Below are positions 50,147-50,885 of a stretch of 64,000 nt of DNA, one piece after another. Source of the stretch: an uncultured Actinomycetota bacterium (GTDB lineage: Bacteria > Actinomycetota > Actinomycetes > Streptomycetales > Streptomycetaceae); contig CAWFMG010000003.1 in assembly GCA_963816875.1 (NCBI GenBank), positions 341,683-405,682 of the forward strand. The letters run 5' to 3'. The first letter of the stretch is position 1. Each line of letters opens with the position of its first letter. Position numbers and translations under genes: made by a program. The notes under the pieces are model-generated. The model was given only the letters and a program-made list of their open reading frames with translations. It was not told the DNA's origin and made no database searches.

Positions 50147-50170
50147 CTCAAAAGGCGCTCTGACAGCGCT
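50147..50170 (-). terminator. Weak stem-loop plus short U-run immediately after the precursor gene (possible attenuator)
   Basis: Minus strand AGCGCT-GTCAG-AGCGCC-TTTTG. Only a 5-bp perfect stem. Confidence 0.3.
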
Positions 50171-50406
50171 CAGAGACCGGCGAGGCCGGTCACACCGGTG
50201 ATGTTGACGCCGGTCAGGCCGGCGACCTGGCTGGTCGCCTGGCCGGCCAGGCCCTGCACGTAGCCGACGGTCTCAAGCGAGTTGACGGCGGCGGTCACGT
50301 CGGAGGTCACGGCGCCGACCAGGCCAGTGGCAGCGGCGGCGACACCACCGGCCACGGCGTCCAGCTCGGTGTCGGCGATCTCGCGGGTCTCAAGGTCGTT
50401 ACGCAA
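50170..50406 (-). CDS. Double-glycine-leader precursor peptide (78 aa from TTG 50406; 91 aa if ATG 50445)
   Basis: C-terminal part of ORF 50170..50646. Leader (M)RNDLETREIADTELDAVAGG, then the 57-aa core VAAAATGLVGAVTSDVTAAVNSLETVGYVQGLAGQATSQVAGLTGVNITGVTGLAGL. GAAGGGA lies 8 nt upstream of the TTG. Confidence 0.6.
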   Translation of the reverse strand: MRNDLETREIADTELDAVAGGVAAAATGLVGAVTSDVTAAVNSLETVGYVQGLAGQATSQVAGLTGVNITGVTGLAGL

Positions 50407-50885
50407 GGCGCGTGTCCCTTCAAAGGTGGTCGGAGTTCTTCTCATCCCAGTGGCCCGAGAACGGGTCGCCTGGCGCCGGGATACAAACACGCGAACGCAG
50501 GTCGTGGCCAGCGTCGTTGACCCTGGCCAGCGGCCTCGGCGGACCCTGCGGTGACCGGCGTGCACCTTCTTTTCCCAAGTAGCGGCAACTTTTTCGCGTA
50601 ATGAGGCAACGGCCCCACTCACCTCTCCGCCACTACGGGGCCTCAAACGATCAGAATGCGGACGATGGGCGTCATGTCGGCCATCGACCCGAACGCGAAG
50701 AGAAAGGCTCCGGTTGCGTCCACAGTGTGAAGGTCTTTCGCCGAAGACTCCTCACATGACTGAACCGGCCCCGGGCGGGACCGGTCGTCGGCACCGGGAC
50801 GGGGGCAGGAGGCGGCGTCCAAGTGCCGTTTGCGCGCGCTCGCGGGAGGACGAACCATGGTGCGGAGCCGTCGAAGGAGGCTGGT

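Follow-up and report, generated by a model that had tools for sequence, protein, structure and literature searches.

A conserved four-gene cassette for the probable secretion of a double-glycine peptide in Streptomyces-type actinomycetes, with a possible microcin- or bacteriocin-like function

The window analysed here is a stretch of 64,000 nucleotides (nt) with an overall G+C content of 72%, taken from the genome assembly of an uncultured member of the Streptomycetaceae (contig CAWFMG010000003.1 of GCA_963816875.1), and all coordinates refer to it. Its minus strand carries a small gene coding for a precursor peptide, in which a leader of the double-glycine type precedes a hydrophobic core, and three exporter genes that code for a HlyD-like accessory protein, a peptidase-containing ATP-binding cassette (ABC) transporter (PCAT) and a second ABC half-transporter (ABC2). 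These genes and the features around them are listed in Table 1. The precursor gene is real and conserved, it is strictly linked to the exporter genes, its leader is conserved and its core evolves fast, and neither a tailoring gene nor an immunity gene is conserved beside it. It lacks an annotation and belongs to an uncharacterised family of double-glycine peptides, very probably secreted, that occurs across Streptomyces and is associated with a known type of exporter. A preliminary description, made from the DNA letters, had proposed a small open reading frame (ORF) with a double-glycine leader and a core of 57 amino acids (aa); this is confirmed by the sequence and by homologous ORFs in 84 of 84 related loci.

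Table 1. Features of the cassette and of its upstream region, in the order of transcription; dN/dS is the ratio of nonsynonymous to synonymous substitution rates
Feature	Coordinates	Strand	Description	dN/dS
Conserved upstream block	50602..50586	(-)	ATTACGCGAAAAAGTTG; from an alignment of the upstream regions of 23 loci; possibly a regulator site	
Promoter-like region	50521..50481	(-)	GTCAAC-N18-CGTTC (resembling targets of extracytoplasmic function, ECF, sigma factors) overlapping CGTGTTTGTAT (extended -10-like, TG-n-TTGTAT)	
Ribosome-binding site	50421..50415	(-)	GAAGGGA; spacing of 8 nt (cacgcgcc) to TTG 50406	
Precursor peptide gene	50406..50170	(-)	TTG start, 78 codons, TGA stop at 50172..50170; translation (M)RNDLETREIADTELDAVAGG followed by VAAAATGLVGAVTSDVTAAVNSLETVGYVQGLAGQATSQVAGLTGVNITGVTGLAGL	
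Double-glycine leader	50406..50344	(-)	(M)RNDLETREIADTELDAVAGG, 21 aa; cleavage predicted after G21	0.16-0.34
Core peptide	50343..50173	(-)	57 aa, ~5.24 kDa, net charge ~-2; ends -AGL	0.69-0.89
Weak hairpin	50169..50150	(-)	GCGCT-gtcag-AGCGC followed by CTTTT; 5-bp stem; indistinguishable from chance	
HlyD-like accessory protein	49975..49169	(-)	268 aa; N-terminal membrane anchor; Pfam HlyD_3 match	0.28-0.40
PCAT	49172..46536	(-)	C39 domain begins at 48722; matches to Peptidase_C39, ABC_membrane and ABC_tran	0.16-0.20
ABC2	46535..43473	(-)	Second ABC half-transporter without peptidase domain; TIGR03797 839.8 bits (cut-off 709.4)	0.35-0.38

The precursor ORF shows the coding pattern of Streptomyces, with G+C contents of 0.73, 0.53 and 0.88 at the first, second and third codon positions; 5' of TTG 50406 the values are 0.60, 0.70 and 0.64 and this pattern is lost. 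A ribosome-binding site of the form GAAGGG or GAAAGG is found 8-10 nt before the start codon in 85 of 85 loci, and the codon aligned with TTG 50406 is ATG in most of them and TTG or GTG in the clade of the window. Since both the ribosome-binding site and the position of the start are conserved across the 85 loci, these data support TTG 50406 as the best start for the precursor. The site before this codon had been noticed in the preliminary description, together with the lack of such a site before an upstream ATG (50445), and both observations are borne out. The N-extended start at ATG 50445 was considered and is disfavoured: it has no properly spaced Shine-Dalgarno sequence, the coding signal falls there, and the homologues begin at the codon equivalent to the TTG. 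This ATG is also in frame in the closest related locus (L005), and the mature peptide would be identical with either start.

The exact sequence of the window peptide is absent from the protein collection, with no 100% match among its homologues, so the source annotation made no gene call for the precursor. In simulated sequence, a regular expression for double-glycine leaders finds about 0.6 chance matches per six-frame translation of 64 kb. The leader motif alone therefore proves nothing, and its significance has to come from context and conservation. That evidence exists: a search for homologous small ORFs beside PCAT genes, as had been proposed at the outset, found one in the equivalent place in each of the 84 related loci, and on these comparative grounds the precursor is a real gene. 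A second, loose match to the leader expression (MPHTELVRISGA, 30204-30239, minus strand) is probably meaningless given the rate expected by chance.

The peptide has 42 protein homologues of 72-88 aa, all of them from Streptomyces or of metagenomic origin. In a species-level scan with one genome per species, relatives occur in 149 genomes, and the 80 loci that were retrieved belong without exception to Streptomyces, Streptantibioticus or Streptoverticillium. The closest relative is that of Streptomyces sp. B6B3 (the locus L005 mentioned above), with a peptide identity of 90%. The order peptide, HlyD-like protein, PCAT and ABC2 is kept in every locus with enough DNA, and each locus has one peptide gene (tblastn, 84 loci). 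Compared with the window, the PCATs of these loci are 82-95% identical, the ABC2 proteins 64-86%, the HlyD-like proteins 60-91% and the peptides 51-90%. When 1.84 billion representative proteins were searched with a profile, 52 clusters were returned, and these disclosed a wider superfamily, in which the leaders follow ...(V/I)ETREI(A/S/D)DxELDxVxGG and the cores, rich in Gly, Ala, Val, Thr, Leu and Pro, often end in -GLAGL. Two divergent peptides of this superfamily (P0067 and P0088) are encoded in the same four-gene cassette in four loci (L085-L088), with PCATs that are 82-84% identical to that of the window. The distance of the locus to a chromosome end is 0.5-1.9 Mb in six chromosomes that are complete or nearly so, and a search for plasmid copies in PLSDB found none. 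Another family member (P0015, 79 aa, about 58% identical) is probably encoded in the same genome as the window, which would then have a paralogous locus elsewhere.

The leader of the window peptide, MRNDLETREIADTELDAVAGG, has the residues G-1, G-2, V-4, L-7, E-8 and I-12, which vary little or not at all among 43 sequences; the first five had been pointed out before and I-12 is added here. The residues R2, E6, T7, E9, E14, L15, G20 and G21 are invariant across the family, and most of the 42 protein homologues begin with MRNDLETREIADTELDAVxGG. Besides, the leader matches M..Rx[IL]x9G[GAS], the published regular expression for class II microcin signals (PMC12219008), as R8-E-I10-x9-G20-G21, in a prepeptide of 78 aa (the limit being 150 aa). 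In an AlphaFold2 model the leader is helical and is the most confident part (predicted local distance difference test, pLDDT, 80-84). The features of the leader and the linkage to a PCAT with a catalytically intact C39 domain place the precursor in the double-glycine-leader class, and the leader is very probably cut after Gly-Gly during export.

The three exporter genes are adjacent, and each product scores above the NCBIfam equivalog cut-off for the trio named "NHLP bacteriocin export". The HlyD-like protein reaches 170.2 bits with TIGR03794 (cut-off 156.2), over profile positions 255-417 of 421, and has no counterpart of the long helical hairpin of this family profile. Its homologues fill more than 1,600 database clusters; the top 120 are all of 267-275 aa, and every named one is from Streptomyces or Streptantibioticus. 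The PCAT scores 996.4 bits with TIGR03796 (cut-off 853.3) and matches Peptidase_C39 with E = 6e-34; it aligns over its full length with PCAT1 (4ry2, E = 4.5e-88) and with ComA, and the catalytic motifs Q-x5-C, HYVV and NDP of the C39 domain can be read in its translation. The start of this protein is probably GTG 49172, which overlaps the stop codon of the HlyD-like gene. This start would give an N-terminal extension of about 150 aa before the C39 domain (48723-49172), of low complexity and rich in Pro, Ala, Arg and Gln, where the relatives have about 30-50 aa. Pfam offers no match for the first ~470 residues of ABC2, nor does the PDB for the first ~490. The N-terminal cytoplasmic region of this protein contains a Gly/Tyr-rich low-complexity insert of 71 aa (GGYEGYDGYDPSGGYGGYGQFGGYGDTGGYGDTGGYGEY..., 46211..45999, minus strand) that is much shorter in L001.

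In the window, PCAT and ABC2 form one continuous reading frame. At the junction (46536-46601) an insertion of 31 nt relative to L005 removes the usual stop/ATGA overlap, and in all of the 79 other loci PCAT terminates 6-12 codons after its conserved end. This continuity is either a genuine recent fusion or an assembly error; one reading frame for both proteins would fit two halves of a single transporter.

The core of the window peptide contains no Cys, Lys or Arg, one Tyr and two acidic residues (one Asp and one Glu), with a grand average of hydropathy of 0.90 and an isoelectric point of about 4. The preliminary description had the same count except for three acidic residues, which is wrong, and its expectation of an anionic or neutral product rich in small residues agrees with the whole family, whose cores consist of Gly, Ala, Val, Thr, Ser and Leu to 72-90% and have 0-2 Lys or Arg. 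The 79 distinct cores contain 20.7% Gly, 20.4% Val, 11.3% Ala, 10.6% Leu, 9.8% Thr and 8.4% Ser (81% together), with 0.7% Arg, 0.1% Lys and no Cys, Met or Trp, despite a genome of 72% G+C. Ser and Thr make up 18% of the core, and Tyr occurs in five of the 79. The cores are 49-62 aa long and anionic or neutral, and 78 of the 79 family peptides end in G[LIVFM], 67 of them in AGL. The spacing GxxG is strongly enriched (156 observed against 84 +/- 7, z = 10.4), GxxxG is mildly enriched (z = 3.1) and GxxxGxxxG is not (z = -0.9). The glycine-zipper-like character that had been suggested for the core is not supported for this reason: the enriched spacing is another one, and in the window core GxxxG occurs once and a zipper not at all.

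The dN/dS ratios of Table 1 are pooled pairwise Nei-Gojobori estimates from 80 loci, in which the pairs are not independent and the alignment of the low-complexity core inflates dN. They indicate purifying selection on the leader and on PCAT and an almost free evolution of the core, a contrast which is large despite these caveats. A conserved leader joined to a hypervariable core is the pattern of secreted bacteriocin precursors and of precursors of peptides that ribosomes synthesise and that are modified after translation (RiPPs).

Upstream of the gene, the block ATTACGCGAAAAAGTTG is kept in the clade of the window and is recognisable as a variant elsewhere, though the flanking genes differ. 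Of 85 loci, 77 have the pattern [CT]GTG[CT]TTNNAT at a distance of 50-144 nt ahead of the start codon, and none of 1700 shuffles has it. Just 5' of it, CAAC-N17-19-CGT is seen in 53 loci, a motif similar to ECF-sigma promoters, for instance the listed sigma-E targets (PMC6767563). The region 50521..50481 is on these grounds a putative promoter; a simple scan with consensus sequences for sigma-70 promoters and terminators found nothing. Directly 3' of ABC2 (41670-43355, minus strand) there is a gene for an ECF-like sigma protein of 561 aa, conserved at this place only in L005, L006, L007, L009, L010 and L024. Its Sigma70_r4_2 score of 21.4 bits is below the Pfam cut-off of 25.7, and it also has an anti-sigma-like segment rich in Cys and a long tail rich in Pro. 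It deserves mention because of the ECF-like motif CAAC-N18-CGT upstream of the precursor.

A stem-loop between the genes for precursor and exporter is a classic arrangement that yields more precursor than pump. Such a role had been proposed for the hairpin after the stop codon of the window gene, and the idea is right for the family and not for the window itself. In most loci a strong stem-loop (GTGAACCCCGGA...TCCGGGGTTCAC, e.g. L001:10253-10318) is found within 70 nt after the stop, with folding energies of about -35 to -65 kcal/mol (z from -4 to -8) and compensatory changes in seven of 14 predicted pairs (alignment of 42 loci). It is lost in the window (50100-50169) and in L005, and the 70 nt after the stop in the window fold with -20.6 kcal/mol, no better than shuffles (z = -0.09). 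The 5' untranslated regions of many loci (L026, L012 and L082, about 95-140 nt before the start) contain nested inverted repeats, GCGGCAG..GGCGGCCGAGTTTCGGGCCGCC..CCGCCGC; this seemingly structured region is shortened in the window (50407-50480) and in L005. A search with Rfam around the gene in the window and in seven related loci found no RNA family in the 5' untranslated region or after the stop, the sole matches being a sub-threshold CRISPR-DR and an unrelated cobalamin riboswitch.

With respect to known peptide classes, the window peptide stays below every Pfam and NCBIfam cut-off. Scans of 43 close relatives and 42 superfamily members with one or both collections gave weak matches (best E 2.6e-4), mostly to models of bacteriocin or lantibiotic type that resemble the leader. 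No publications on the window peptide family were found in the literature searched.

The class II microcins (MccV, H47, E492, M and the expansions of 2022-2025) are among the closest known systems. They are likewise small, ribosomal and mostly unmodified, they have double-glycine signals of 15-21 aa, whose regular expression the window leader fits, they are exported by a PCAT with an adaptor of the HlyD family, and they have very diverse cores behind conserved signals. Their cores are rich in Gly, Ala, Val, Ser and Thr and neutral to anionic, as that of the window is. On the other hand, class II microcins belong to Gram-negative bacteria and leave by the TolC route, whereas the adaptor here is a truncated protein of 268 aa and, the host being a Gram-positive actinomycete, there is no TolC. 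The cassette of the window family differs further in that it has a second ABC protein in every case; an adjacent immunity gene, standard in microcins, is not found here, and neither is the Ser-rich siderophore tail.

The bacteriocin systems of Gram-positive bacteria (lactococcins, PCAT1/CtA, ComA/ComC) share the leader pattern, in which positions -4, -7 and -12 are hydrophobic and position -8 is Glu, and the combination of a C39 ABC exporter with a HlyD-like accessory protein. Typical class II bacteriocins of this group are cationic, and immunity genes or two-component systems accompany them; the window family differs in having almost no Lys or Arg and neither partner. The preliminary statement that the core is unlike cationic class II bacteriocins is thus true against the typical Gram-positive ones, but the same composition is the norm in the Gram-negative class II microcins. 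Among family members, the matches to TIGR03949, PF10439 and TIGR01847 are all below the cut-offs. A two-peptide bacteriocin of class IIb (lactobin A/cerein 7B, TIGR03949) was considered and rejected, with weak matches in four of 42 superfamily members (best E = 0.0015) and a single peptide gene per locus.

The export trio itself has been linked statistically to precursors of the NHLP and Nif11 types, often far from their enzymes (Haft et al. 2010, PMC2887384), and the window cassette has the same three proteins, all above the equivalog cut-offs. The same set of export genes occurs in cyanobacterial clusters of groups V and VII; the transporters of group VII are fused, which the in-frame PCAT and ABC2 of the window mirror (Wang et al. 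2011, PMC3140520). However, NHLP and Nif11 precursors have long leaders, while that of the window has 21 aa without homology to NHase or Nif11: TIGR03793 and TIGR03798 do not match the window peptide, and each matches one of 42 superfamily members, with E = 0.025 and 0.089. Those systems and the group V/VII clusters also have several precursors, unlike the single one per locus here, where no TOMM or LanM enzymes are found nearby.

The public names of the relatives in NCBI and UniRef are "hypothetical protein" or "type A2 lantipeptide". The second label is very probably wrong and most likely stems from a sub-threshold similarity of the leader to PF04604, seen at E <= 0.1 in 12 of 43 family members (best E 0.012), with the window peptide scoring 15.3 bits against a cut-off of 21.7. 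Since the core has no Cys, as is the case in all 79 cores, a lanthionine is impossible, and no tailoring enzymes, LanM, LanB and LanC included, were called within 8-10 kb in the eight loci with gene calls. A type A2 lanthipeptide is accordingly rejected, just as had been claimed from the window sequence. One genome-mining paper gives the label "type A2 lantipeptide" to what may be a similar gene, next to one for Peptidase_C39 (PMC13047742).

A divergent Sulfotransfer_3 gene (50823-51932, plus strand) begins 417 nt from the start of the precursor, an adjacency that is probably coincidental. It recalls the RaxX-RaxST-RaxA-RaxB system of Xanthomonas, in which a sulfated double-glycine peptide is exported by a PCAT with its adaptor, but this likeness is limited to the window locus: the sulfotransferase is a conserved partner of RaxX and is found in none of 84 loci here, and there is no RaxX-like sequence. 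Tyrosine sulfation of the RaxX kind is rejected on the grounds that the sulfotransferase lacks conservation and that few cores contain Tyr.

Taking these data together, the favoured explanation is a four-gene secretion cassette for a linear, unmodified, hydrophobic and weakly anionic peptide of about 5.2 kDa, most probably a microcin- or class II bacteriocin-like factor in competition against related actinomycetes, to which a probability of about 0.55 can be given. The precursor of 78 aa would be translated from TTG 50406, and its helical leader of 21 aa would dock on the C39 cysteine-peptidase domain of PCAT, which would cut it after Gly-Gly. PCAT, probably as a heterodimer with ABC2 and together with the membrane-anchored HlyD-like protein, would then pump out the core of 57 aa, and the product would act outside the cell. 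The cleavage site, the export, the lack of modification and the heterodimer are predicted from the sequences, and the antimicrobial role is the least certain part. The simplest view of the product, given the lack of a conserved tailoring enzyme, is that of an unmodified linear peptide. The hypervariable core, the position of the loci toward the chromosome ends and the characterised precedents favour an antagonistic role; to our knowledge, all characterised precedents of such systems are bacteriocins or pheromones.

Several observations weigh against this explanation. No conserved immunity gene was found in the loci compared: the cassette is strictly of four genes and its flanks differ between loci, which is atypical for bacteriocins and microcins. 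Related to this, a fifth conserved gene downstream that might confer immunity was sought and discarded, the gene 3' of the cassette in L001 not being common to other loci. The identity of PCAT across species (82-95%) resembles that of a conserved physiological system rather than an arms-race weapon. The composition of the core is tightly held although its sequence is nearly free, so that the constraint is on composition and not on the exact sequence. Signatures of an amphipathic helix, a beta-strand or a transmembrane segment were sought in the core and none was found; its helical hydrophobic moment is at most 0.27 and its maximum Kyte-Doolittle hydropathy over 19 residues is 1.37. AlphaFold2 with an alignment of 43 sequences gives a single long helix of low confidence (pLDDT 65, below 50 at the C-terminus). 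The absence of a conserved immunity gene, the high conservation of the exporter and the constraint at the level of composition argue against a weapon and leave room for a role in structure or signalling. The core might also be modified by enzymes encoded at a distance, as occurs with NHLP and Nif11 precursors (PMC2887384).

Other roles have to be weighed against a competition factor. It is possible, albeit unlikely, that the family represents a new functional class restricted to the Streptomycetaceae, immunity-less, unmodified, Gly/Val-rich and with hardly any Lys or Arg, in which selection acts on composition, GxxG and the -AGL end rather than on the exact sequence, and which would serve as a self-assembling or surface-active material or as a kin signal, being neither a bacteriocin nor a classical pheromone. 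Its secretion would fall to a dedicated heterodimeric exporter of PCAT and the second ABC protein, conserved to the degree of a housekeeping gene.

A narrower proposal is that the peptide is a surface-active or self-assembling component of the extracellular space or the hyphal surface, in the niche of chaplins and SapB, selected on composition and GxxG periodicity and without any toxic function. This is rather improbable, although a core with dN/dS of 0.7-0.9 that nonetheless holds Lys and Arg at 0.1% and 0.7%, lacks Cys, Met and Trp and consists to 81% of six residues is what it would lead one to expect, together with the GxxG enrichment (z = 10.4), an exporter conserved like a housekeeping protein and the missing immunity gene. 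In size (about 5 kDa) and composition the window core seems to resemble the short chaplins. Nevertheless, neither the window peptide nor the 43 family members have a Pfam match to chaplins, no match to another structural family appears in Pfam or NCBIfam, and the N-terminus is a double-glycine leader and not a Sec signal, whereas the known surface proteins of Streptomyces take Sec or lanthipeptide routes. The core shows no beta or helical amphipathic periodicity, and loci toward the chromosome ends, with the strictly matching family in only 149 species genomes, speak against a structural component as well.

The core could instead be a RiPP substrate that is modified by enzymes encoded elsewhere (dehydration of Ser/Thr, proteusin-like epimerisation or, in the window only, sulfation of Tyr) and exported afterwards. 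The statistical link of this type of export cassette to NHLP/Nif11 precursors with often distant enzymes (PMC2887384), the Ser/Thr content of 18% and the sulfotransferase gene upstream of a core with one Tyr can be brought forward for it, but it is an improbable reading too. No tailoring enzyme is conserved near any locus, the sulfotransferase is missing from all 84 related loci, the 90%-identical L005 included, and Tyr is present in five of 79 cores. The only PDB match of the sulfotransferase is weak and falls on a polyketide-synthase sulfotransferase domain (4gox, E = 9e-4). Besides, the lack of Cys leaves no thioether or thiazole, and a leader of 21 aa is short and unlike the recognition leaders of NHLP/Nif11 precursors.

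A secreted signal for pheromone communication or kin recognition would be comparable to ComC, BlpC and plantaricin A, which have double-glycine leaders and are exported by PCATs. Of 42 superfamily members, 11 have a leader with weak similarity to the VP1 pheromone model and six have one with weak similarity to TIGR01847, which points in this direction, as do the lack of an immunity gene, the divergent cores beside near-identical exporters, which resemble the diversification of pherotypes, and the identical peptides across strains and species (P0025 is labelled MULTISPECIES, with 14 contigs). Such a role is decidedly improbable, given that no histidine kinase or response regulator was found conserved beside the cassette, that the known double-glycine pheromones are cationic peptides of 17-27 aa whereas the window family has anionic or neutral cores of 49-62 aa, and that the downstream ECF-like sigma gene is conserved only in the nearest clade of the window. 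Finally, a chance open frame in GC-rich DNA that is not expressed, for which the missing gene call in the source annotation, the TTG start and the random frequency of the leader motif could be cited, has practically no probability, as it is effectively refuted by the comparative data: an intact ORF, ribosome-binding site, start and leader in every related locus, purifying selection on the leader and codon-position G+C typical of a coding frame.

The four-gene cassette is of interest for its distribution, with 149 species genomes of Streptomyces type as the lower bound and further ones if the divergent peptides are counted, and the peptide family has no curated model. Should the peptides be antimicrobial, the class II microcins would have Gram-positive counterparts in them, and they could be expressed and engineered easily because they are unmodified and genetically minimal. 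If they are not, they would indicate that a peptide function outside the cell has gone unrecognised in a genus whose development and secondary metabolism have received intensive study. Whichever role holds, the cassette provides a compact natural pair of double-glycine leader and exporter for peptide secretion in Streptomyces, and the recurrent genome-mining annotation "type A2 lantipeptide" (for example in PMC13047742) is corrected.

The remaining neighbours in the window, the sulfotransferase gene and a Ble-like gene included, are not common to the 84 loci; the exceptions are the ECF-like sigma gene in the nearest clade and a zincin-like gene that is shared with L005 only. At 3-8 kb from the precursor there are also a gene for an imine-reductase-like oxidoreductase (53743-54648, minus strand) and another for a regulator of the AfsR/SARP type with BTAD, AAA_16 and TPR domains (54781-58290, plus strand).

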